Shown one piece after another: positions 199 through 62,777 of a stretch of DNA of 64,000 nucleotides. The DNA comes from Patescibacteria group bacterium (lineage in GTDB: Bacteria; Patescibacteriota; Minisyncoccia; Minisyncoccales; JAHCRE01): contig JAHCRH010000001.1 of assembly GCA_020148025.1 (NCBI GenBank), forward strand, positions 12,652 through 76,651, read 5' to 3'. Numbering within the stretch: position 1 is the stretch's first letter; each line of letters begins with the position of its first letter. The notes beneath the pieces were generated by a model. That model did no database searches. It saw only the letters and a list, made by a program, of their open reading frames with translations, and was not told the origin of the DNA. The position numbers and the translations under genes are program-made.

Positions 199-323
199 GT
201 CGCGGCACGCGACGGTCGCTTTTGCGACCGCGCTAATACCGCTCCTTAAAACCCATCGGTTTTAATCTTTCCGCTACGGGAAAACGCCCACTGTTCACAC
301 ACAGCTCAGTTTTCCCGACCCAG
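199..323 (-). repeat. GC-rich palindromic element, family A copy (reverse orientation), upstream of the first ORF
   Basis: 'gtcgcggcacgcgacggtcgc...ctacgggaaaacgcccactg...gttttcccgaccc'; near-identical to the 44634-44733 copy. Confidence 0.65.
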
Positions 324-373
324 GGGCCCGCTTTAGCGGGAGGGTGGTGGGTGGGTTGTAGTCTGATTTTTCT

Positions 374-23369: not shown

Positions 23370-23500
23370 CTCGAATTGGGTCGTGATTGAGTGAATGTGC
23401 CGCGAGTCACGGACTCGTAATGTGAGGTAAGAGGATGCCGACGCCCTCCTTATCCATTCCTCTGGCCGAGGCTCCCGCCCACGAGAAAATTGATTCCTGA
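23370..23500 (+). other. GC-rich structured block in an AT-rich spacer (possible ncRNA, leader or repeat element)
   Basis: 'gggtcgtgattgagtgaatgtgccgcgagtcacggactcg...ggccgaggctcccgcccacgag', followed by a hairpin terminator at 23500-23542. Confidence 0.3.
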
Positions 23501-23575
23501 AAGGCGTTCAACAATAAAACTTACGAACGCCTATTTTTTATTTAATTCAGAACTTAAAAATGTTAAGATAAAAAA

Positions 23576-24595
23576 ATGAAAAAGAAGAATCAAAAGTTTA
23601 CTTATCGAGACCTTCAATCCCAGTCCGCCACCGCCCGCGAGCGGACTCGCGGGCGGGCGAGCGGCGGGCCGATGGGGGGCGGATATGTAATTGGAGTAGA
23701 TGGAGGAGGAACAAAAACAATTGCTGCTTTGGCTAATTTAAAAGGAAAGATTTTGAAACTGGCAAAAACTGGGCCTTCAAATTTGAGGAACGTTGGAATA
23801 AAAAAAGCAGCTGAAAATATTGCTTTAGCAATTAAAAAAGTTTTGCCAAAGAAAGGAAAAATTTTATCTACTTTTATAGCTTTGGCAGCAGTTGAAGAAG
23901 AGTATAAATTCAAAAAAGAAAGAATCAAAAAAGAGATTTTAAAAGAAAAAGGAGTTTCTAAAATTTCAAAAGGAAAAATAGAAATTGGTTCAGATCAAGT
24001 TATAGCTTTTAGAGCAGGAACTGATGACAAAGATGGCGTTGTTCTAATTTCAGGCACGGGTTGTGTAGCTCGTGGCTGGAAAGGGAATAAAGAAGCAAAA
24101 GTTTCAGGTTGGGGTTGGTTAGATGATGAGGGTTCTGGATTTTGGGCGGGTCAAAGGGGTTTCCAGGCAGTTTTAAAAGAATTAGATGGTCGAGGGCCAA
24201 AAACTAAAATTACGAAATTAATTTTTAAGGAATGGAAATTGAAAAATAAAGAGGACCTTCTAAAAAAAGTTTATTCAAAAAATTCAATTCGCCAGGTTTC
24301 TTGTATCTCAAGAATCGTTGATAAAGCTGCTGAGGAAGGGGATAAAATTGCCAAAAGTATAATGAAAGAAGCTGGAAAGCAATTAGCTCAAGCTACCATT
24401 TCGGTAATTAAAAAATTAAATTTCAAAAATCAGAAATTCCCCTTAGTTTTGGTTGGCAGAATGTTTAGGTCGAAGGTTGTTTTAAAGAAAGTTAAATCTC
24501 AAGTGAAAAAAATTGCTCCAAGAGTGAAATTTATTCGGCCCAAAAAAGAACCAGTACTTGGGGCAGTAAAATTGGCTATTGAAAATTTAAAATAA
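23576..24595 (+). CDS. BadF/BadG/BcrA/BcrD-type ATPase (N-acetylglucosamine kinase-like)
   Basis: 'GVDGGGTKT'; likely true start at internal Met near 23672; the N-terminal 32 codons are a GC-rich perfect palindrome 'ccgcccgcgagcggactcgcgggcgg'. Confidence 0.7.
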   Translation: MKKKNQKFTYRDLQSQSATARERTRGRASGGPMGGGYVIGVDGGGTKTIAALANLKGKILKLAKTGPSNLRNVGIKKAAENIALAIKKVLPKKGKILSTFIALAAVEEEYKFKKERIKKEILKEKGVSKISKGKIEIGSDQVIAFRAGTDDKDGVVLISGTGCVARGWKGNKEAKVSGWGWLDDEGSGFWAGQRGFQAVLKELDGRGPKTKITKLIFKEWKLKNKEDLLKKVYSKNSIRQVSCISRIVDKAAEEGDKIAKSIMKEAGKQLAQATISVIKKLNFKNQKFPLVLVGRMFRSKVVLKKVKSQVKKIAPRVKFIRPKKEPVLGAVKLAIENLK

Positions 24596-24655: not shown

Positions 24656-24741
24656 TGGTGCCGCCGGTGGGAGTTGAACCCACATGAGGTTTCCCTCATG
24701 CGATTTTGAGTCGCACGCGTAATCCATTCCGCCACGGCGGC
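24656..24741 (-). tRNA. tRNA-Leu (anticodon CAA), encoded CCA
   Basis: reverse complement 'gccgccgtggcggaatgg...gactCAAaatc...gggttcaactcccaccggcggcacca'; long variable arm; 86 nt. Confidence 0.8.
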
Positions 24742-31247: not shown

Positions 31248-31847
31248 TTATTTATTAAACTCATTCATTGTCTTTTCGATTCCTTCTATTATCGCCACCT
31301 CAATTGCCTGGCAAGTTCGTTTAATAACTTCTTTTAAAAGTTTCTCCTCTTTTTTAGTAAATTTTTGAAGAAGAAAACTCTCTAGGGTTTTAGGGTCTAG
31401 GGTATAGGGTTTAGGTTTAATTCCGATTCTGAAACGGACAAAGTTTTTTGTTCCCAACTCATCAGTTATTGATTGAATTCCTTTGTGGCCAGCTGCTCCC
31501 CGATTTTTGATAATTTTCATTTTTCCTAAAGGCAGATCGATATCGTCGTGAACAATAATTAGGTTATTAGGGTCTAGGGTATAGGGTTTAGTTAATAATT
31601 TTACTGCTTTTCCGGAATTGTTCATAAAGGTCTGGGGTTTAGCTAAGATAACTTTCTTCTTATCCAATCTACCTTCTGAAATTAAAGAATTGAATTTTTT
31701 AGAAAATCTAAATTTTGGGAATTTCTTTTCCTTTGCAAATTGATTGACAACTCGAAAACCAAGGTTGTGCCGAGTCCTAATATATTTTCTTCCTGGATTG
31801 CCCAGACCAACAATGAGTGTCATATTAACATTTAAACATATTAACAT
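31248..31847 (-). CDS. pth: peptidyl-tRNA hydrolase
   Basis: 'MTLIVGLGNPGRKYIRTRHNLGF', 'IVHDDIDLPLGK'; contains two identical 25-bp copies of a repeat. Confidence 0.9.
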   Translation of the reverse strand: MLICLNVNMTLIVGLGNPGRKYIRTRHNLGFRVVNQFAKEKKFPKFRFSKKFNSLISEGRLDKKKVILAKPQTFMNNSGKAVKLLTKPYTLDPNNLIIVHDDIDLPLGKMKIIKNRGAAGHKGIQSITDELGTKNFVRFRIGIKPKPYTLDPKTLESFLLQKFTKKEEKLLKEVIKRTCQAIEVAIIEGIEKTMNEFNK

Positions 31848-32587: not shown

Positions 32588-33859
32588 ATGACAAGGCCAA
32601 AGTTTCAAGCCCCGACAGGAATGCACGATATTATATTTACCGAGCAAGGCTATTTTAAAAAAATTTATAATATCGTAGAGAATATTGCCAATTTCTATCG
32701 ATTCGAAAAAATTGATACTCCGATTTTGGAGGAGACTGAGTTGTTTTCAAAAGGAATTGGTCTTTCTACTGATATTGTCCAAAAACAGATGTATGGTCTC
32801 CGAACCAAAGGTGGGGATTCCTTGACTTTAAGACCGGAGGGAACGGCTCCAATAGTCAGAGCTTTCATTGAAAAGGGAATGTTTAATCTTCCTCAGCCAG
32901 TGAAACTTTGGTATTCTGGTCCCTTTTTTCGCTATGAACGTCCTCAAGCTGGTAGATATCGCCAATTTCATCAATTTGGATTTGAAGTTTTGGGAGAAAG
33001 GAACCCGATAATTGATGCTCAGATTATTCAAATTTTTTTCCAAATTTTAAAAAGTCTCAAATTGAAAAATTTAATCATTGAAGTAAATAGCATTGGAGAT
33101 TCTCAGTGTAGGCCTTATTATAAAAAACTTTTAACAAGCTATTTTAGATCAAGAGAGTCCAGTTTATGTGCTAATTGCCGGAGAAGGTTAAGAGAGAATC
33201 CTTTAAGAATTTTAGACTGTAAAGAAGAGAAATGTCAGCCAATTAAAGCTCAGGCCCCTCAGCTAATTGATCATCTTTGCAAGGAATGTCATTGGCATTT
33301 TAAGGAAGTTTTGGAGTTTCTAGATGAGCTAGAGATCCCCTATCAATTAAATCCCTATTTAGTTCGAGGATTAGATTATTATACTAAAACGGTCTTCGAG
33401 ATTTTCGAAGATACTGAAGAAGGTCGAAAACAGGGAGCATTAGTTGGGGGAGGGAGATATGATGCTTTAGTTAAACTTTTGGGTAGAAAAGATGTTCCTG
33501 CCTGTGGCGGATCGGCTGGAATTGAAAGAATTGTAAATTTAATGAAGGGAAAAAAAATAAGACTTCGTTCATTTCCTAAACCTAAAATATTTTTAGCTCA
33601 GATTGGTAATTTGGCCAAACGTAAGAGTTTAAAAATTATTGAAGAGTTTAGAAAAGCGAAAATTGAAGTTGCTGAATCTTTTGGCCGAGATTCTTTAAGG
33701 GCTCAATTAAACAGAGCCAATCGAATAGGAGTAAAATTTACCCTAATTTTAGGACAAAAGGAGGCTTTGGAAGGAACGATAATGGTTCGAAATATGAAGA
33801 CTGGAAGCCAGAAAATAGTAAAGTTAGATAAAATAGTTAAGGTGATGAAAAAAGGCTGA
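32588..33859 (+). CDS. hisS: histidine--tRNA ligase
   Basis: class II motifs, 'GMHDI', 'GGGRYD'. Confidence 0.9.
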   Translation: MTRPKFQAPTGMHDIIFTEQGYFKKIYNIVENIANFYRFEKIDTPILEETELFSKGIGLSTDIVQKQMYGLRTKGGDSLTLRPEGTAPIVRAFIEKGMFNLPQPVKLWYSGPFFRYERPQAGRYRQFHQFGFEVLGERNPIIDAQIIQIFFQILKSLKLKNLIIEVNSIGDSQCRPYYKKLLTSYFRSRESSLCANCRRRLRENPLRILDCKEEKCQPIKAQAPQLIDHLCKECHWHFKEVLEFLDELEIPYQLNPYLVRGLDYYTKTVFEIFEDTEEGRKQGALVGGGRYDALVKLLGRKDVPACGGSAGIERIVNLMKGKKIRLRSFPKPKIFLAQIGNLAKRKSLKIIEEFRKAKIEVAESFGRDSLRAQLNRANRIGVKFTLILGQKEALEGTIMVRNMKTGSQKIVKLDKIVKVMKKG

Positions 33860-33924
33860 AGAAAAGTTAATTTTAACATGCTAACATCCTAACATTTTAA
33901 CAAAAACAAACTCTCAATGTTTAA

Positions 33925-34284
33925 ATGTTAATATGTTTAAATGTTTTGATGATGGCCGATTGCCTATTTTGCAAAATTATCAAGAAAAAACTTCCCTCAG
34001 ATATTGTCTATGAGTCAGATTCGGTTATTGCTTTTAAGGATATTAATCCTAAGGCCCCGGTACATCTTTTAATTTTGCCAAAGGAACATATTCCTTCGGT
34101 GAATCATTTAAAAAAAGAAGACAGAGAATTAATGGGGGAATTAATACTTGTGGCTCAGAAAATCGCTAAAGAGAAAAAATTAAAAGGATACAAATTAATA
34201 ATTAATGTCGGTCGAGGAGGTGGTCAGCTAATTGACCATTTACATTTACATTTACTGAGTGGAAAACTATTAGAATTACCTTAA
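33925..34284 (+). CDS. HIT-family protein (HinT-like)
   Basis: histidine triad 'HLHLHLL'; start probably at internal Met 'MADCLFCKI' near 33952. Confidence 0.85.
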   Translation: MLICLNVLMMADCLFCKIIKKKLPSDIVYESDSVIAFKDINPKAPVHLLILPKEHIPSVNHLKKEDRELMGELILVAQKIAKEKKLKGYKLIINVGRGGGQLIDHLHLHLLSGKLLELP

Positions 34285-34535: not shown

Positions 34536-34695
34536 TTTTAGGAGAAGCGCTCGGCAACTAAATTTTCAAAGTATCGGCTATCCGAATCCCAGCGAGATTC
34601 GGTATCCTGCGTTCTCGGCCCGTTGTCCGCCAGAGGCAGAACCATGCCAACAGGCCTCCGAAAGCTACTTTGAAAATTGTTGCCTCACTCTAGGT
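34536..34695. repeat. GC-rich MITE-like element, family C, with terminal inverted repeats
   Basis: TIRs 'gcaactaaattttcaaagta' / 'tactttgaaaattgttgc'; core 'gaaccatgcc...ggcctccgaa' shared with 39645-39800. Confidence 0.55.
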
Positions 34696-36969: not shown

Positions 36970-37015
36970 ATATCTTTATCTTTTTTAAAATAAATGTTAG
37001 AATAGGTTTGAATTA

Positions 37016-37070
37016 TTGACACTTCGGCGGCCTCAGTGTCAACCCTGAGCGAAGCCGAATGGGTTGACTT
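37016..37070 (+). repeat. GC-rich palindromic element, family B copy
   Basis: 'ttgacacttcggcggcctcagtgtcaaccctgagcgaagccgaatgggttgac'; homologous copies at 41050-41110 (reverse) and 61372-61450. Confidence 0.55.
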
Positions 37071-37266
37071 TCGAGGAATAAAATTCTAAAATGATTAAAT
37101 ATTATCTGTAAAAGGTTGACTATCTTTTTAATTTTAATAAAATAAGAATATAACACTTTAAACTTGAATTATGAATTGAGAATTATGAATTAGGAATACA
37201 TCGCCTCTGGGCGTTATAGCTTTAACGATTCATTATTCTTGATTCATTATTCATAATTCTAAATTT

Positions 37267-39644: not shown

Positions 39645-39800
39645 GCTCGCCGTTTGTCACGAAGAGACAACAATCAATTTTCCCAGCGAGAAAATTGTTG
39701 TTCGTTTCTCGGCCTCGCTCTTCGAGCTAAAGCTCGAAACCATGCCCGCTCGGCCTCCGAAGCGCTCTTCTTAGCCAAACGGCTCGCTTAATGGTTGTTC
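39645..39800. repeat. GC-rich element, family C copy (internal hairpin 'gacaacaatcaattttc...gaaaattgttgttc')
   Basis: shares 'gaaaccatgcccgctcggcctccgaagcg' with 34536-34695. Confidence 0.5.
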
Positions 39801-39994
39801 AGAAACTACACTCCTTGCTTAAAGGTTTTTATTCGTATATTCGTAAAAATTCGTAATTCGTAGGAAAATAAAAAAATGGGCATTTAGCGTCCGCCCGATA
39901 ACAAATCAATTCATGCTTGTTGATACTTACCCCGATAGTATACCCGCCTTCGGCGGATAACTACGGGGCAAGCAATCAAAAAGATAATCCAAAT

Positions 39995-41935: not shown

Positions 41936-42250
41936 ATGGCAAGAAGTTTAAAAAAAGGTCCTTTTGTTGACCAAAAATTGCTTAAAAAAATGAAGAAGCT
42001 GGAGCCGAGAACTAAGGAGATTATTAAAACCTGGGCTCGGGATTCAGTCATTACCCCTGAAATGGTTGGTTTTACTTTTGGAGTTCATAACGGAAAAGAA
42101 CATATCCCAGTTCATATCACTGAAGAAATGGTTGGCCACCGGCTCGGTGAGTTTGCCCCGACTACTAGATTTTCCAGACACGGAGGAAAAATACAAAGAG
42201 AACTTGAGAAAAAATCGGGTCGAAAAGAAGCCGAAAAATTAAAAAAATAG
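41936..42250 (+). CDS. rpsS: ribosomal protein S19 with C-terminal extension
   Basis: '[11 protein letters not shown]', '[23 protein letters not shown]'. Confidence 0.95.
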
Positions 42251-42333
42251 TCAGTAGGGTTTAGCCAATAGGGTTTAGCCAATAGAGTGGAAGAAATTAG
42301 ACCCTAGACCCTAGACCCTAGACTCTAGACTCT

Positions 42334-44280: not shown

Positions 44281-44517
44281 ATGCCTAAAAAAAGATTAAA
44301 AGGAACAGTGATATCAGATAAAATGGAAAAAACAGTGGTGGTGGAAATTGAACGGATTAAAGAACATCCAAAATATAAGAGGAGATATAAAGTCCATAAA
44401 AAATATAAAGCCCATGATGAAAAGAGTGAATATAAGATTGGAGACAAAGTGATAATTGAAGAATGTAGGCCAATAAGTAAAGAGAAAAGGTGGAGAGTAA
44501 TAAGAAAATTAGAATAA
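44281..44517 (+). CDS. rpsQ: ribosomal protein S17
   Basis: '[14 protein letters not shown]'. Confidence 0.9.
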
Positions 44518-44597
44518 TGAATAATGAATAATGAATTATGAATTATGAGAACGATATATCCTTATTCTTTATTCCTAATTCGTAATTCTCAGTTTTT

Positions 44598-44810
44598 ATG
44601 ATACAACCAAGAACAATGTTAAAAGTAGCTGATGTCGCGGCACGCGATCGCTTCGCTCCGCTAACACCGCTCCTTGAAACCTTGCGGTTTCAATACTTCC
44701 ACTACGGGAAAACACCCAGTTTTCCCGACCCCTTTCTATTATCAGCTACTTTTGATAGTATTTATTACTACTTTTTAAATAAAATTAAGTTTATTCTAAA
44801 AATAAAATGA
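44598..44810 (+). other. upstream ORF made of a duplicated rplN start (12 codons) fused to a family-A repeat element; its TGA overlaps the rplN ATG
   Basis: 44598-44633 'atgatacaaccaagaacaatgttaaaagtagctgat' versus 44807-44842 'atgatacaacctaggactatgctaaaagtagctgat'; four differences, all synonymous. Confidence 0.5.
44634..44733 (-). repeat. GC-rich palindromic element, family A copy (reverse orientation)
   Basis: 'gtcgcggcacgcga...ctacgggaaaacacccagttttcccgacccc'. Confidence 0.7.
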
Positions 44811-45178
44811 TACAACCTAGGACTATGCTAAAAGTAGCTGATAATACTGGTGCTAAAATCGTTCAATGTTTTAGAGTTTTAGGTGGTACTCGTAAAAGAT
44901 ATGCCCGAATTGGTGATATTATTGTTGGCACTGTAAAAGAAGCTGAGCCGAGAAGACTGGTAAAAAAACACGATATTGTCAGGGCAGTAATAGTTCGTCA
45001 AAAAAAAGCTTATCGAAGATCTGACGGAAGTTATATTCGATTTGACGATAATGCCATCGTAATTTTAGAAGGGAAAACAAAAGACCCAAAAGGGGGGAGA
45101 ATCACTGGACCAGCGCCTAGAGAATTAAAAGAGAAAGGATTTGAAAAAATAGCGGGATTAGCTGAAGAATTAGTATAA
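44807..45178 (+). CDS. rplN: ribosomal protein L14
   Basis: '[17 protein letters not shown]'. Confidence 0.95.
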
Positions 45179-46815: not shown

Positions 46816-46847
46816 AAATTAGAAATACCGCCCCATATCGGAGAGAG

Positions 46848-46990
46848 GTCGGGAGAACCCTCCGGTTCTCCCGTATAGGAAAACAGCGAGCGAAGCTCGC
46901 GTTAGAAACCGAGGGTTTCTAAAGAGCGAGCCCGAAGCGACCCGCCCAGGGCGGGGAGCACCAGAACTTTGTTCTGGAGAGGGCGAGCGA
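46848..46990 (+). repeat. GC-rich palindromic element, family A copy (diverged), between rpsH and rplF
   Basis: 'ggtcgggagaaccctccggttctcccgtataggaaaacagcgagcgaagc...accagaactttgttctgg'. Confidence 0.55.
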
Positions 46991-48567: not shown

Positions 48568-49011
48568 ATGCAATTACATCAATCACGTTCAAAACATAAA
48601 TTAAAAAAGAGAAAGCGTGTAGGCCGGGGAGGGAAACGTGGTACTTATTCTGGTCGGGGAATAAAAGGTCAAAGGGCTCGAGCTGGTCGAAAGCTGAAAC
48701 CTGTAATTCGAGAGTTAATAAAAAGATACGCAAAGTTAAGGGGATATAGATTCAAACCTCTGGAACAAAAGCTAGATGTGATTAATATTGAGACCCTTGG
48801 GAAAAAATTTAAAGCAGGCTCGGTGATTAATCCTCAAACCTTGCTTAAACTTAGATTAATCCGTAGAATAAAAGGGAAGATGCCAAAAGTAAAAATTTTA
48901 GGGAGGGGAGAAATAAAAAAGGCTTTAGTTATTGAAGGGTGTGAGATTTCAAAAAGTGCTAAAGAGAAAATCAAAAAAGCAGGCGGCAAAATTACAGGGT
49001 CTAGGGACTAG
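48568..49011 (+). CDS. rplO: ribosomal protein L15 (directly after S5; no L30 gene)
   Basis: 'KLKKRKRVGRGGKRGTYSGRG'; the track ORF from 48535 runs through the (ctcttgt)x4 repeat. Confidence 0.9.
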   Translation: MQLHQSRSKHKLKKRKRVGRGGKRGTYSGRGIKGQRARAGRKLKPVIRELIKRYAKLRGYRFKPLEQKLDVINIETLGKKFKAGSVINPQTLLKLRLIRRIKGKMPKVKILGRGEIKKALVIEGCEISKSAKEKIKKAGGKITGSRD

Positions 49012-49082
49012 GGTCTAGCCATTAGGTTCTAGTAAAAAAACGATAAATCCTAAACCCTATACCCTGAACCCTAAGCTAAAAT

Positions 49083-56143: not shown

Positions 56144-56824
56144 ATGGATAAATTTTTAAAAGGTTATTTTTATAATCCCACTCGAGGAAATTTGAAAATC
56201 AAGGAGGTGATGGAGGAAATGTTAAGCTACATGAAGGAGAAACCAGAAAAGTTTTACGATATTATTGTTGGTTGTGATTCTTCCTCTGGAGAGAAATTCA
56301 ATTTCCCAGTGGCAGTGGTTATTTTAAGAGTAGGGGAAGGAGGGAGATTTTTTCTTAAAAAAATAAATTATCCTCCATCTCTAAGAAAAAAATTTTCCAA
56401 TTGGAAAATGCGAGTTTTGGAAGAAGTTTTATTATCCTGTGAATTAGCTCTATTCTTAAGAGAGAACTTTGAGAAAAAGATAAAAAGTGAATCAAATGCT
56501 TTTGATAAAAAGCCAGAAGGGGGTCGGGAAAACTGGGTGTTTTCCCGTGGTGGAAACAGGGAGGCTGAAAGCCGACCGCCAGAACCGCAAGGTTCTGGGG
56601 AGCTGAGCGAAGCGAGCCCAAAGGGCAAGCGCCAGCCGAAGGCTGGAGAAGCGAAGCAACCTTTTAATTATCAACTTCGTTATATTCATGCTGATATTGG
56701 AGAGCACGGTCAGACAAGAGATATGATAAAAGAAGTTACTGGTTTAATCCGGGGAAATGGCTTTGAGCCAAAGATTAAACCAGAGTCCTATGTAGCTTCA
56801 ACGGTGGCTGATAGATACAGCTAA
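56144..56824 (+). CDS. YkuK/DUF458-family RNase H-like protein carrying an in-frame family-A element insertion of about 150 nt
   Basis: 'IIVGCDSS' ; insertion encodes 'PEGGRENWVFSRGGNREAESRPPEPQGSGELSEASPKGKRQPKAGEAKQP'. Confidence 0.6.
   Translation: MDKFLKGYFYNPTRGNLKIKEVMEEMLSYMKEKPEKFYDIIVGCDSSSGEKFNFPVAVVILRVGEGGRFFLKKINYPPSLRKKFSNWKMRVLEEVLLSCELALFLRENFEKKIKSESNAFDKKPEGGRENWVFSRGGNREAESRPPEPQGSGELSEASPKGKRQPKAGEAKQPFNYQLRYIHADIGEHGQTRDMIKEVTGLIRGNGFEPKIKPESYVASTVADRYS
56517..56660 (+). repeat. GC-rich palindromic element, family A copy, inside the ykuK-like ORF
   Basis: 'gggtcgggaaaactgggtgttttcccgtggtggaaacagggagg...ccagaaccgcaaggttctgg...gcgaagcg'. Confidence 0.7.
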
Positions 56825-61125: not shown

Positions 61126-61218
61126 AGCGAGCAAGACGCGCTCCGCAATGGCAGAAGAGATAATTCTTGTTTGATGGGATAAATAAATATTTTTTAGAAC
61201 TTTAATCCAAATTTCAGA

Positions 61219-61450
61219 AAGGGGTCGGGAAAACTAGGTGTTTTCCCGTATAGGAAGACAGGGAGGAGCGAAGCGACGACCGCCAGAAACCGAGAGGTGT
61301 CTGGGGAGCGGAGCGAAGGTCGCCAAGGGCGACCGCTCGAGCGAAGCGCGAGGGAGGAGAGCGACAATATTGATGCTTCGACAGAGGCTCAGCATTAACC
61401 CTGAGGACATTCGGCTGAGCTCAGTCGAAGCCCTTGTCGAATGGGTTGAC
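61219..61450 (+). repeat. composite GC-rich element: family A copy (61219-61374) followed by a family B copy (61372-61450)
   Basis: 'ggggtcgggaaaactaggtgttttcccgtataggaagacagggagg...' then 'gctcagcattaaccctgagg...gtcgaatgggttgac'. Confidence 0.65.
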
Positions 61451-61831: not shown

Positions 61832-62221
61832 ATGCCACGTATTGCCGGAGTTAATATCCCGGAACAAAAACAAATAGAGATTGCTCTAACCTATATTTAT
61901 GGAATAGGTCTTTCTTTGAGTAAGAGGATTTTAGCTGAAGTTGGAATTGAAGGTCGGCGCCGGGCTAAAGATTTGACGCCCGAAGAGATTTCTCGACTTA
62001 AAGGAAATATCGAAAAAAAATATAAAATTGAGGGAGGACTTAAAAGAGAGATAATGATGAATGTTAAAAGATTAAAGGATATAGGAACCTTTCGAGGGAT
62101 TCGTCATATTAAGGGATTACCAGTAAGGGGTCAAAGAACCCGGACTAATACCCGGACGGTCAGAGGAAATGTAAGAAAAACGGTAGGTTCGGGAAGAAAA
62201 CCACCGCCCGCCCCCAAGTAA
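61832..62221 (+). CDS. rpsM: ribosomal protein S13
   Basis: '[10 protein letters not shown]'. Confidence 0.95.
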
Positions 62222-62324
62222 AAATCATTTTAACATACTAACATACTAACATCCTAACATCTTAACATATCAAAATACTTTTTTTTGTTTAAATGTTAAA
62301 ATGTTTAAATGTTAAGATGAGATT

Positions 62325-62777
62325 ATGGGTAAAAAAAGAATTATCAAAAAAACTGAAGAAGAGCTTCTAAAAGAAAGAGCAAGAGTCGAGGCGGCTTTAA
62401 AAAAAGAAATTAAAGTTCAGGCTCCTCAAAAAATCAAGGAGGGAAAGGTTTATATTTTTTCTTCTTATAATAATACAATAATGACTTTAACTGGTCCTCA
62501 AGGAAATACTCTTACCTGGGCCAGCGCTGGTAATGTTGGATTTAAGGGAACAAAGAAAGGTACTCCTTTTGCGGCCTCTAAAGTGGCTGAGGTTTTAGTT
62601 CAGCGAGCCAAAAAATTAGGAATAGATAAGGTCGAAATTTTAGTAAAGGGTATAGGTTCTGGTCGAGAATCAGCCATAAGGTCTTTGGCTAATCGGGGTT
62701 TAGATATTATTTCAATTCAGGATGTTACCCCCATTCCTCATAATGGATGTCGACCGCCAAAAGTAAGAAGAGTATAA
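62325..62777 (+). CDS. rpsK: ribosomal protein S11
   Basis: S11 core, C-terminal 'HNGCRPPK'. Confidence 0.95.

Follow-up and report, generated by a model that had tools for sequence, protein, structure and literature searches.

The window analyzed here, a 64,000-nt stretch of patescibacterial DNA, carries five copies (c1 to c5) from a family of GC-rich palindromic repeats that have diverged but share conserved hairpins. Two of them occupy ribosomal-operon spacers (S17-L14 for c2, S8-L6 for c3), as had been predicted from the sequence, while c4 lies inside ykuK and is the only one of the five that is intragenic. The original prediction had called at least five copies in 64 kb; a family HMM and a covariance model agree on exactly five, at approximately the predicted coordinates and in the predicted orientations. 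The HMM detected all of them and nothing further (E 1e-11 to 1e-17), and the covariance model, run over the window with filters off, scored them at 54-81 bits, the next match (18 bits) being a palindromic hairpin read on the opposite strand and nothing more. Coordinates of the copies and of the associated features are collected in Table 1.

Table 1. Repeat copies, flanking repeats and host-gene segments, in window coordinates
Feature	Position	Strand	Remarks
10-nt direct repeat flanking c1	~155-164 and 363-372		ATTTTTCTAT
c1, core	199-321	-	24-nt loop in first hairpin; covariance model 56.6 bits
Further GC hairpin next to c1	322-362		from the sequence
A, displaced native rplN 5' fragment	44598-44633	+	from comparison with relative L120
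c2, core only	44634-44736	-	GAAAGGGGTCGGG...GTGCCGCGAC on the minus strand; 81.4 bits
A' of c2	44737-44753	-	AAAAGTAGCTGATAATA; inverted copy of rplN codons 9-14, spans the junction
c2 linker, AT-rich, 53 nt	44754-44806	+	missing from the L120 S17-L14 spacer
X, new 5' 36 nt of functional rplN	44807-44842	+	
c3	46840-46990	+	S8-L6 spacer; 54.4 bits
ykuK/DUF458 (PF04308) ORF	56144-56824	+	226 aa, including 54-residue in-frame insert
Left copy of 5-bp target duplication	56499-56503	+	CTTTT; from empty sites in L120 and L121, and fold
c4	56504-56660	+	inside ykuK; covariance model 67.8 bits
A' of c4	56504-56513	+	GATAAAAAGC; then core CAGAAGGGGGTC...GAAGCAAC
Right copy of target duplication	56661-56665	+	CTTTT; native ykuK resumes here (CTTTTAATTATCAA)
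c5	61215-61365	+	363-nt spacer upstream of infA; 61 bits

The sequence features first ascribed to the family held in most copies. The predicted core, GGGAAAAC-N5-GTTTTCCC, is exact at three places in the window, against a chance expectation of 0.06, but the loop is 24 nt long in c1 and the first hairpin of c3 carries a compensatory variant (GGGAGAAC/GTTCTCCC). Similarly, four of the five copies have the GCGAAGC box, which in c1 is replaced by GCAAAAGC. The GC content of the copies, 56-61%, brackets the predicted value of about 60%, whereas that of the window is 35.5% rather than 33%. The c3 subfamily is also that of a copy located upstream of rpoA in another genome (L110).

Each of the five window copies contains an invariant 9-bp hairpin (CGGGAAAAC/GTTTTCCCG), a second, covarying hairpin, and variable GC hairpins ending in GCGAC. 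The core is about 80-160 nt long and runs in the order (N)GGAAAGG-GGTC, hairpin P2, GTNNNGGAA, optional hairpins, hairpin P3 and GGAGC...GCGAC. P2 is paired in 99.9% of cells, and the only changes found in diverged copies are compensatory doubles. Double changes occur at every pair of P3, for which a separate count gave 43 distinct stems. The covariation score is 0.166, compared with 0.062 in shuffles (none of 500 reached the observed value) and at most 0.073 when the partner is slid. Folding of each copy had been proposed as a check for a conserved hairpin; the P2 and P3 stems are kept, and the z-scores of folded whole units range from -3 to -7.5. We considered and rejected a pseudoknot that would join the GTNNNGG linker to the P3 loop, as the pairing is inconsistent, with many A.G and G.A combinations.

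Searches of assemblies for the exact core, with one genome per species, found it in at least 119 assembly stretches, almost all of them named as CPR lineages and many of the copies at contig ends; additional diverged copies lie within the same loci. For more than half of the copies (62 of 121), a tRNA gene, always in the same orientation, lies 36-126 nt upstream, with 31 anticodons represented. The commonest protein-coding neighbor is fusA (15 loci, median distance 74 nt), and other copies adjoin fusA, typA or rplN. The family is Patescibacteria-wide, prefers tRNA and GTPase genes and is tightly linked to gene ends, namely tRNA 3' ends and the ends of fusA, typA and rplN. At gathering thresholds, Rfam returned only tRNA matches for the window and 15 loci, and a search of c4 at E up to 10 yielded nothing credible above noise; in the literature on CPR repeats, MITEs and structured RNAs we found no description of the family. 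This is in line with the suggestion that such elements had not been characterized in this kind of small, low-GC genome.

What sets these repeats apart is the sequence that flanks them. Typically, an intact gene is followed by a linker, a 12-19-nt inverted copy of the junction (designated A'), the core, and then a second, direct copy of the terminal gene segment, which at tRNA targets extends from the T-loop to the 3' end. The direct repeat shared by the upstream and downstream sides exceeded the 95th percentile of controls in 65 of 83 copies and the control maximum in 61 of 83, with clear duplicated ends at L043, L041, L066, L103, L019 and L008. At tRNA loci the junction is sharp, at position 53/54: exactly 22 nt separate the start of A', within the T-loop, from the tRNA 3' end in 26 of 49 cases, and in 21 of 54 the direct copy terminates exactly at the tRNA 3' end. 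The two gene-end copies differ synonymously at c2, L008, L103 and L062. Target duplications differ in length, with 5 bp at c4, 36 bp at c2 and 52-85 bp at the loci of fusA and tRNA genes. Mismatches are concentrated in the stem region, and even at simple insertions (c4 and the copy in L121) the template for A' is the local target. A T-loop-like motif, GGATTCGAAC, near many copies, together with a published report (PMC13011429), had raised the idea of a group I intron or tRNA intron; the motif is an inverted copy of the neighboring tRNA, so the idea was dropped, and moreover the unit is too small and lies outside intact tRNAs. A tmRNA, Y-RNA or tRNA-minihelix mimic read on the reverse strand was likewise rejected, as loci without a tRNA share the topology with protein-gene sequence in its place.

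The c2 copy allows this arrangement to be oriented. A duplicated rplN start had been noticed beside one of the copies, and c2 does adjoin such a duplication. The 36 nt that now begin functional rplN (X) differ from the displaced copy (A) at four positions, all synonymous, and A' takes in 13 nt of the duplicated segment and the 4 nt past it. Positions 1-35 of A, and the upstream spacer at 44512-44597, are identical to the relative L120, with T versus C at position 36. Since the native rplN start of L120 and the spacer upstream of it match the distal pseudo-copy in the window, it is the linker and the 36 nt joined to rplN that constitute the new DNA. Fragment A opens a 70-codon ORF that continues across the element as far as an ATGA, in which its stop codon overlaps the new start of rplN. 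The linker holds a degenerate second A'-like stretch, and no promoter-like site was found in it. The duplicated rplN start is thus no oddity but the signature of the family, a duplicated gene end with an inverted junction copy; at c1, c3 and c5 we found no clear duplicated gene end.

The c4 copy represents a simpler insertion. It was predicted to keep the ykuK frame open while adding about 50 residues, and the measured addition is 54 residues, or 162 nt in frame when the 5-bp target duplication is counted. The left CTTTT of this duplication pairs with AAAAG in A', forming a small hairpin. Comparison with ykuK orthologues, set beforehand as the refuting test, found them to be insert-free and 169-173 aa long; those at 70% overall BLAST identity (92-94% over the aligned columns) are 172 aa and lack the segment, which is therefore not ancestral. 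Judged from these sequences, c4 is a true in-frame insertion, and the case indicates that element DNA can become part of a protein. Homologues of the inserted peptide were essentially absent from 5.8 billion proteins, with one weak 34-aa match, and metagenomes contained no further copies of the c4 subfamily beyond the L121 contig.

Empty sites provide evidence of movement. L120 is empty at the sites of c2, c4 and c5 (rplN, ykuK and infA), and the ykuK site is also empty in a second relative, L121; the spacer upstream of infA measures 363 nt in the window and 35 nt in the relative. L121 does carry a core identical to that of c4 over about 90 nt, located between alaS and ftsA, where the window is empty. 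The occurrence of a near-identical core at a different locus in a relative points to recent movement of the element.

Our best reading is that these repeats are non-autonomous integrative elements that supply a replacement gene end. More specifically, we put at roughly 60% the probability that they form a Patescibacteria-wide family of small, non-coding, GC-rich, multi-hairpin mobile elements that carry a gene-end copy and integrate at the homologous gene junction. A complete unit, in its own orientation, would consist of a terminal segment of a host gene, a short linker, A' (12-19 nt) and the conserved core. The terminal segment would be, for example, the T-loop to 3' end of a tRNA, the AH(I/V)D codons to the start codon of fusA or typA, the last 24 codons of fusA or the first 12 codons of rplN. 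Such a unit would integrate at the junction within the homologous gene and the carried copy would keep the gene intact, while the displaced native end would stay beyond the core as a pseudo-fragment and pair with A', closing the core in a long stem. On landing in a non-essential site the element would leave only A' and the core with a short target duplication, and where length and frame permit, as in ykuK, an insertion inside a protein may be tolerated.

Two routes of mobilization in trans can be envisaged. The folded hairpin, its stem imitating the target, might be the substrate of a recombinase, as in att-site, attC and CTX-phage recombination; alternatively, DNA uptake might be followed by homologous recombination between genomes, with the duplicated conserved gene end serving as a portable homology arm. 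In either case we infer that the hairpins matter at the level of DNA. Several observations weigh against the proposed explanation. A single classical site-specific integrase would not suit so wide a range of targets (31 tRNA species, both ends of fusA, typA, rplN, ykuK and intergenic sites), and at 22 nt the tRNA segment offers very little length for RecA-dependent recombination. No protein of the transposase, integrase, reverse transcriptase or HUH kind recurs within 2.5 kb of the copies, viral contigs contain no core match, and c1, c3 and c5 have no clear duplicated gene end. The local templating of A' at c4 and in L121 is not explained by a pure model of carried gene ends. A more speculative version, which we offer tentatively and hold to be less than an even bet by some way, is that of a protein-less hairpin element that programs its own target. 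Its core-closing stem, being the junction copy, would act as a DNA guide or att mimic, and it would bring a replacement end for an essential gene (tRNA, EF-G, BipA, L14), rely on host enzymes only, and, once taken up as DNA by distant Patescibacteria, home in on the same gene there. If this were true, the near-invariance of a 26-40-nt core across the phylum would follow.

The family would matter beyond this window. Patescibacteria make up a large share of bacterial diversity, and classical mobile elements are considered scarce in their tiny genomes; a repeat found throughout the phylum at the ends of tRNA and translation genes would be an unrecognized agent of genome change and horizontal transfer. 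It would also account for contigs that repeatedly break, and for spurious ORFs and odd "duplicated gene starts", in assemblies and annotations of CPR genomes, and would exemplify harmless insertion into essential genes by means of a carried replacement end. If the stem truly guides integration, the mechanism would be both minimal and programmable.

Conservation of the core throughout the phylum, with covariation, is also expected of a functional RNA, and to that extent counts against a mobile element. The core might accordingly be a structured RNA (a processing, insulator or regulatory module), or a small RNA with a variable arm antisense to the mRNA 5' end of fusA, typA or rplN or to a tRNA 3' end, in which case the repeats would be genes or cis-elements and not selfish DNA. 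The retention of the P2 sequence, the strong covariation of P3 and the very stable multi-branch folds all suit such an RNA, as do the complementarity between the arm past the core and the translation-initiation region of the adjacent essential gene and the overlap, at c2, of the stop of the read-through ORF with the rplN start. We nevertheless regard it as unlikely. The copies are found in both orientations relative to local transcription; the tRNA-type copies are squeezed between two terminators with no space for a promoter, and the c2 linker likewise offers no promoter-like site. Presence and absence vary among close relatives at rplN, ykuK, infA and alaS-ftsA, unlike an essential regulator, and one copy lies within a coding sequence. 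Counts of G.U versus A.C pairs, dominated by a bulged A in one subfamily, gave no strand signal, and no Rfam family was matched.

The proposed non-autonomous element resembles, in its flanks, the products of site-specific integration. Integrative elements that target tRNA genes, and integrase-less, att-flanked derivatives of them (CIMEs), have reportedly been described. In such att-flanked elements, each direct repeat begins in the T-loop, or within a protein gene, and reaches the gene end, and the copy borne by the element restores the gene while the native end is displaced. The repeats described here also have direct repeats of a terminal segment, starting at the T-loop for tRNA targets, and at rplN the gene is restored by the element-borne copy and the native end displaced, as seen against the empty site of L120. 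One alternative is that the units are immobile: tRNA T-loops and gene ends would once have hosted larger integrative elements (phage, plasmid or ICE-like), and loss of the interior would have reduced these to scars of attL, one conserved arm and attR, as in CIMEs. This classical att signature, and an identity block that often ends exactly at the gene end, give the idea some appeal; we still judge it improbable. The units measure 150-300 bp, and an integrase or a long interior between the repeats was found in none of 121 copies. No recurrent transposase, integrase, reverse transcriptase or HUH protein was found within 2.5 kb of 119 loci, and the ten window ORFs scanned included no transposase, integrase, reverse transcriptase, HUH protein or RAYT. 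Phage origin was rejected, as 2.9 million viral contigs gave no match to the core. Unlike CIMEs, dozens of targets share one core: one compact arrangement, with cores that are nearly identical, turns up at over 30 tRNA species and at several protein genes, an extra inverted junction copy closes the core in a hairpin, and a near-identical core appears at new, non-att-like sites in close relatives.

The family was first likened to the Rickettsia palindromic elements (RPEs), on the premise that it inserts in frame into genes. RPEs lie mostly within genes and retain a conserved peptide frame (PMC10969869). By that analogy, the present family would typically insert in frame in protein genes, adding a tolerated or useful peptide module, as at c4, where 54 residues were added at a position at which ykuK orthologues vary in length, and at the N-terminus of an Mpg-like ORF, where a copy in L120 is in frame. 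Stop codons are also absent from most reading frames of the core. As a trait of the family, though, in-frame insertion did not hold up, and we consider this reading quite improbable. Intragenic insertion accounts for one of the five window copies, none of the 121 copies in other genomes is a convincing case, and the inserted peptide is essentially without homologues. The L120 and c4 copies use different frames, and thus no peptide is conserved, whereas RPEs keep one frame (PMC10969869). The likeness extends to length (about 100-150 bp), to palindromic potential, to a small and AT-rich host genome, and to the ability to sit in frame in an ORF; the present elements, whose host is a Patescibacteria MAG and not Rickettsia, differ in being GC-rich, rarely intragenic, placed at tRNA and GTPase gene ends with duplicated ends and an inverted junction copy, and spread over a whole phylum.

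Lastly, dedicated mobility might be dispensed with altogether if stable GC hairpins stalled replication and template switching left inverted and direct copies as by-products, spread occurring by ordinary recombination only; the local origin of A' at simple insertions, the degenerate A'-like stretch in the c2 linker and the clustering of mismatches in stems fit this idea, which is highly improbable because it leaves unexplained the arrival of near-identical cores at new loci, the sharp tRNA 53/54 junction and the strict orientation relative to tRNA genes.

The preferred reading, a non-autonomous integrative element, has partial counterparts elsewhere. In integron attC sites and in the attP(+) of CTX phage, used by XerCD, the stem of an imperfect folded hairpin reproduces the target duplex, the loop, variable or structured, measures about 100 nt, and after integration one arm and the loop remain beside the junction. 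Here, too, the hairpin stem reproduces the target junction; unlike those systems, there is no IntI among the neighbors and no dif-like site, the R/L boxes (RYYYAAC...GTTRRRY) are absent, and the stem sequence is locus-specific. Like MITEs and the REP/BIME class (Correia, RUP, BOX, ERIC, REP-RAYT), the repeats are short, non-coding, multi-copy, hairpin-forming, mostly intergenic, often within operons, and assembly-breaking. Unlike MITEs, they have no element-borne terminal inverted repeats, the end repeats A' and A being target-derived and different at each locus, and the target duplication, 5 to about 85 bp, has no fixed length; no partner IS was found within 2.5 kb of the 119 loci, nor a RAYT among the window ORFs scanned. 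REP/BIME sequences with RAYT consist of a single imperfect palindrome of 20-40 nt headed by GTAG, whereas the present unit has several conserved hairpins (at least three), and its GT(A/G)G stands after P2, not before. PATE derived from IS200/IS605 have subterminal hairpins and insert 3' of a fixed tetranucleotide without duplicating the target; here target duplications are present, and a fixed tetranucleotide was not seen. Finally, the GC clusters of yeast mitochondria, which are 30-50 bp long with simple short target duplications and without duplicated gene ends, are likewise mobile GC-rich palindromes in a very AT-rich genome and at times lie in frame in a gene; they belong to an unrelated lineage, and in the patescibacterial family the gene ends are duplicated.

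The five related GC-rich stretches previously claimed for the window are present and belong together: a family profile HMM matched exactly five copies (c1 to c5; E 1e-11 to 1e-17), and a covariance model run with filters off scored them at 54-81 bits, the next-best match (18 bits) being a palindromic hairpin only, read on the opposite strand. GC content is 56-61% in the copies against 35.5% across the window, and purines make up 58-69% of the element strand. Chance would yield 0.06 occurrences of the inverted motif GGGAAAAC-N5-GTTTTCCC, and three are observed; in c1 the loop of the first hairpin is 24 nt, not N5. In c3 the same hairpin carries a compensatory G:C. Identity of the ykuK product to KJA16_00415 assigns the window to a Patescibacteria MAG.

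Features of the element family and of other repeats (window coordinates unless marked L120, a close relative; core anatomy on the element strand)
Feature	Position	Detail
c1	199-321 (-)	
c2	44634-44736 (-)	S17-L14 spacer
c3	46840-46990 (+)	S8-L6 spacer
c4, inserted DNA	56504-56660 (+)	inside ykuK
c5	61215-61365 (+)	
Core, 5' start		(N)GGAAAGG-GGTC
Hairpin P2		CGGGAAAAC / loop / GTTTTCCCG, 9 bp
Segment 3' of P2		GT-NNN-GGAA
Optional extra hairpin		one, GC, some copies only, between GT-NNN-GGAA and P3
Hairpin P3		...AACC / GNNN / GGTT..., 8 bp
Core, 3' part		(G/A)GAGC, 0-3 further GC hairpins (often GCGAAGC loops), terminal GCGAC or GCAAC
ykuK ORF	56144-56824	226 aa, PF04308
c4 target duplication	56499-56503 and 56661-56665	CTTTT
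Diverged in-frame copy	L120 20015-20126	43 bits
c2 D	44807-44842, repeat at 44598-44633	first 36 nt of rplN
c2 A'	44737-44753	
c2 linker	44754-44806	
Spacer upstream of native rplN start	44512-44597	
ORF from displaced rplN start	44598-44810	70 codons
Stop/start overlap	44807-44810	ATGA
tRNA-Leu(CAA)	24656-24741	
Second GC-rich family	34566-34677, 39694-39806; L120 2316-2476	TTCCCAGCGAGA...CTCGGCC...GAAACCATGCC...CTCCGAA
Third GC-rich family	37014-37081, 61366-61445	TTGA..CTTCG..CTCAG..AACCCTGAG...GAATGGGTTGAC
Palindrome	23610-23680	87% GC, GTCCGCCACCGCCCGCGAGCGGACTCGCGGGCGGGCGAGCGGCGGGC
BadF/BcrAD-type ATPase ORF	23576-24595	Pfam domain from residue 39
GC-rich island	23385-23513	~130 nt
AT-rich tandem repeats	31383-31600, 33859-33952, 37215-37266, 42250-42333, 44505-44556, 48987-49074, 62216-62328	period 7-8 nt

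In an alignment of 126 distinct model matches, which includes copies outside the exact-pattern selection, P2 is paired in 99.9% of cells and its substitutions are exclusively double and compensatory, while P3 shows double changes at every pair (one pair: UA 38, GC 20, AU 18, CG 10). The covariation score of 0.166 was reached by none of 500 column shuffles (0.062), and slid partners gave at most 0.073. In a separate count, 43 distinct P3 stems had 7.36 of their 8 positions paired (shuffles: 5.97), and whole units adopt multi-branch folds with z-scores of -3 to -7.5. No Rfam family matched the element. A pseudoknot suspected in the core was unsupported on testing.

The exact core, GGTCGGGAAAAC-N(4-30)-GTTTTCCCGT, was found in at least 119 stretches of a one-genome-per-species collection. 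Among the matches listed, nearly all records carry CPR names (Saccharibacteria, Paceibacteria/Parcubacteria, Jorgensen-, Kaiser-, Taylor-, Nomura-, Colwell-, Lipton-, Moranii- and Berkelbacteria), a few bins with non-CPR names may be mis-binned, and many matches lie at contig ends, as expected of a repeat. The covariance model added diverged copies in the same 8-kb loci, and no core was found among 2.9 million viral contigs.

These copies occupy a distinctive niche. Among the matches listed, 62 of 121 have a tRNA gene 36-126 nt (median ~70) upstream, always in the orientation of the element and covering 31 anticodons, and fusA is the commonest protein neighbour (15 loci, median distance 74 nt); typA adjoins some other copies. 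The order that recurs along the element strand starts with the intact gene, end proximal, and continues with D (a copy of the terminal part of the host gene), 20-45 nt of linker, A' (a short inverted copy of the target junction), the core, a second direct D and unrelated flank. A' is 12-19 nt long and inverts the first part of D together with the 1-4 nt of gene sequence that lie beyond it. The direct repeat scores above a displaced control's 95th percentile in 65 of 83 copies and above its maximum in 61. At tRNA loci the start of A' lies precisely 22 nt from the 3' end, where the T-loop begins, in 26 of 49 cases, and the tRNA 3' end is the exact end of the direct copy in 21 of 54. At fusA/typA loci the G1 motif holds the junction, in its AH(I/V)D codons, and D reaches the start codon; at one fusA locus (L008) the junction lies 24 codons before the stop, which D includes. 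The displaced typA/fusA copies of four loci (L004, L007, L013, L062) converge at their core-proximal end on GCGACGA(C/T)GGGTGC, which reads AP-x-V rather than AH-x-D irrespective of the sequence of the local gene; the motif either belongs to the core 3' end or marks a shared ancestry of these units. The window's only tRNA gene, tRNA-Leu(CAA), has no adjoining element, though tRNA 3' flanks are the commonest site elsewhere.

Within the window, c2 is a textbook family member, and L120, a related genome ~9% divergent in coding DNA with the same gene order, establishes which side is new. Its S17-L14 spacer is 95 nt (290 nt in the window), its spacer before infA 35 nt (363 nt in the window) and its YkuK 172 aa. 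The native rplN start of L120 (nt 1-35 of its first 36) and the spacer upstream of it are identical to the upstream pseudo-copy of the window, with a 14-nt indel just 5' of the identity block; the DNA added in the window is therefore core, A', linker and new rplN 5' end, in that order. The new end differs from the native one at four positions, all synonymous, and synonymous differences between paired gene-end copies recur at three loci of other assemblies (L008, L062, L103). Often the gene boundary is also the end of identity, an effect seen at tRNA loci. This pattern would be expected of a unit that carries the functional gene end of an earlier host and supplies it on integration, a logic shared with att sites inside genes. 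The displaced native rplN start opens an ORF running through element and linker, whose TGA stop overlaps the new rplN ATG, an arrangement that would allow termination-reinitiation coupling. Window and L120 differ by two units in the S17-L14 tandem array.

The original prediction had cast the family as RPE-like, inserting in frame into genes. The segment in ykuK is not ancestral, since the nearest orthologues (169-173 aa) can be aligned before and after a 54-residue gap (...KSESSL / SNYQLRYIH...) and the empty site could be read from the DNA of two relatives. With its target duplication the insertion is 162 nt, contains no stop codon, and starts with GATAAAAAGC, an inverted copy of the target GCTTTT(AAT)TATC. 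In-frame residence is exceptional for the family, however. The inserted peptide has one weak match among 5.8 billion proteins, and among the matches listed a believable ORF contained a copy in 0 of 121 cases from other genomes; the sole other candidate is a diverged copy in L120; an Mpg-like (PF02245) ORF holds it in frame close to the N-terminus, in a reading frame different from that of c4. Size, hairpin potential and possible in-frame residence, as in c4, are common to both families, but the frequent in-frame insertion with a conserved peptide by which RPEs are defined (PMC10969869) was looked for here and is absent. The RPE-like reading is borne out only in part.

Recent movement is evident in L121, the closest relative by ykuK, in which the ykuK site is empty and a core identical to c4 over ~90 nt lies between alaS and ftsA, a site empty in the window and L120. 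The insertion is bounded by a short target repeat (TTTG/TCTG), and its left flank pairs with an inverted copy of itself as a small hairpin (TTTTGCTT-agta-GGGCAAAA), so that A' can be templated from the local target upon insertion; together with c4 it indicates that the duplicated segment may be only 4-5 bp.

We favor a non-autonomous mobile DNA element, giving the statement as a whole a probability of about 0.6 and holding "mobile repeat" by itself with higher confidence. The covariation of the hairpins and the phylum-wide conservation would also suit a functional RNA, a reading we consider improbable: copies run either with or against transcription, those of tRNA type are flanked by terminators that leave no room for a promoter, and close relatives differ in presence or absence of copies, all of which points to a DNA-level element over an RNA gene. 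For such a mobile element, the core would probably be a recognition or folding module, A' and the start of D would form a stem reproducing the target duplex, and integration at the junction would spare the gene, the missing end being supplied by the unit. Two routes, both compatible with the data and possibly coexisting, can be envisaged: a trans-acting recombinase may act on the folded hairpin, by analogy with attC or CTX attP(+), or copies may pass from genome to genome when DNA is taken up and recombined, the duplicated conserved gene end then serving as a homology arm that travels with them. No recurrent recombinase, RT or transposase was found near copies, such diverse targets speak against a conventional integrase, and for RecA an arm of 22 nt is short. 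That the integration mode is new and self-guided is conceivable, though we regard it as doubtful.

Among known systems, the closest in logic are att-flanked integrative elements at tRNA T-loops, which share the T-loop-to-3'-end direct repeats and a gene restored by the element; unlike them, the present unit is 150-300 bp, has no integrase, uses dozens of targets and adds an inverted junction copy. A MITE must carry terminal inverted repeats of its own and a target duplication of fixed length, both lacking here; REP/RAYT repeats appear not to fit, and IS200/IS605 PATEs do not. The element is best filed as a small non-autonomous mobile repeat with an unusual gene-end-duplicating insertion signature. 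Our literature search found no paper describing the family, and neither Patescibacteria nor tRNA-linked elements come up in a 2024 review of prokaryotic MITEs.

Other features were also noted. A second GC-rich family occupies the S8-L6 spacer of L120, where the window has c3, so this spacer looks like a hotspot for different elements. One copy of a third family lies directly 3' of c5 and ends at a -35-like TTGACT, native upstream of infA in L120. An ATPase ORF of BadF/BcrAD type has a palindrome in frame within its first 38 residues, possibly another, unrelated GC-rich in-frame insertion. A GC-rich island between two ORFs, with a terminator-like AACGCC...TATTTTTT after it, could represent a small RNA missing from the annotation; Rfam at gathering threshold gave no match for it. 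Finally, AT-rich tandem repeats (for example GGGTCTAGGGTATAGGG, AACATACTAACATCC and AATAATGAATTATGAA) turn up repeatedly in intergenic spacers, often in inverted pairs with genes between them.
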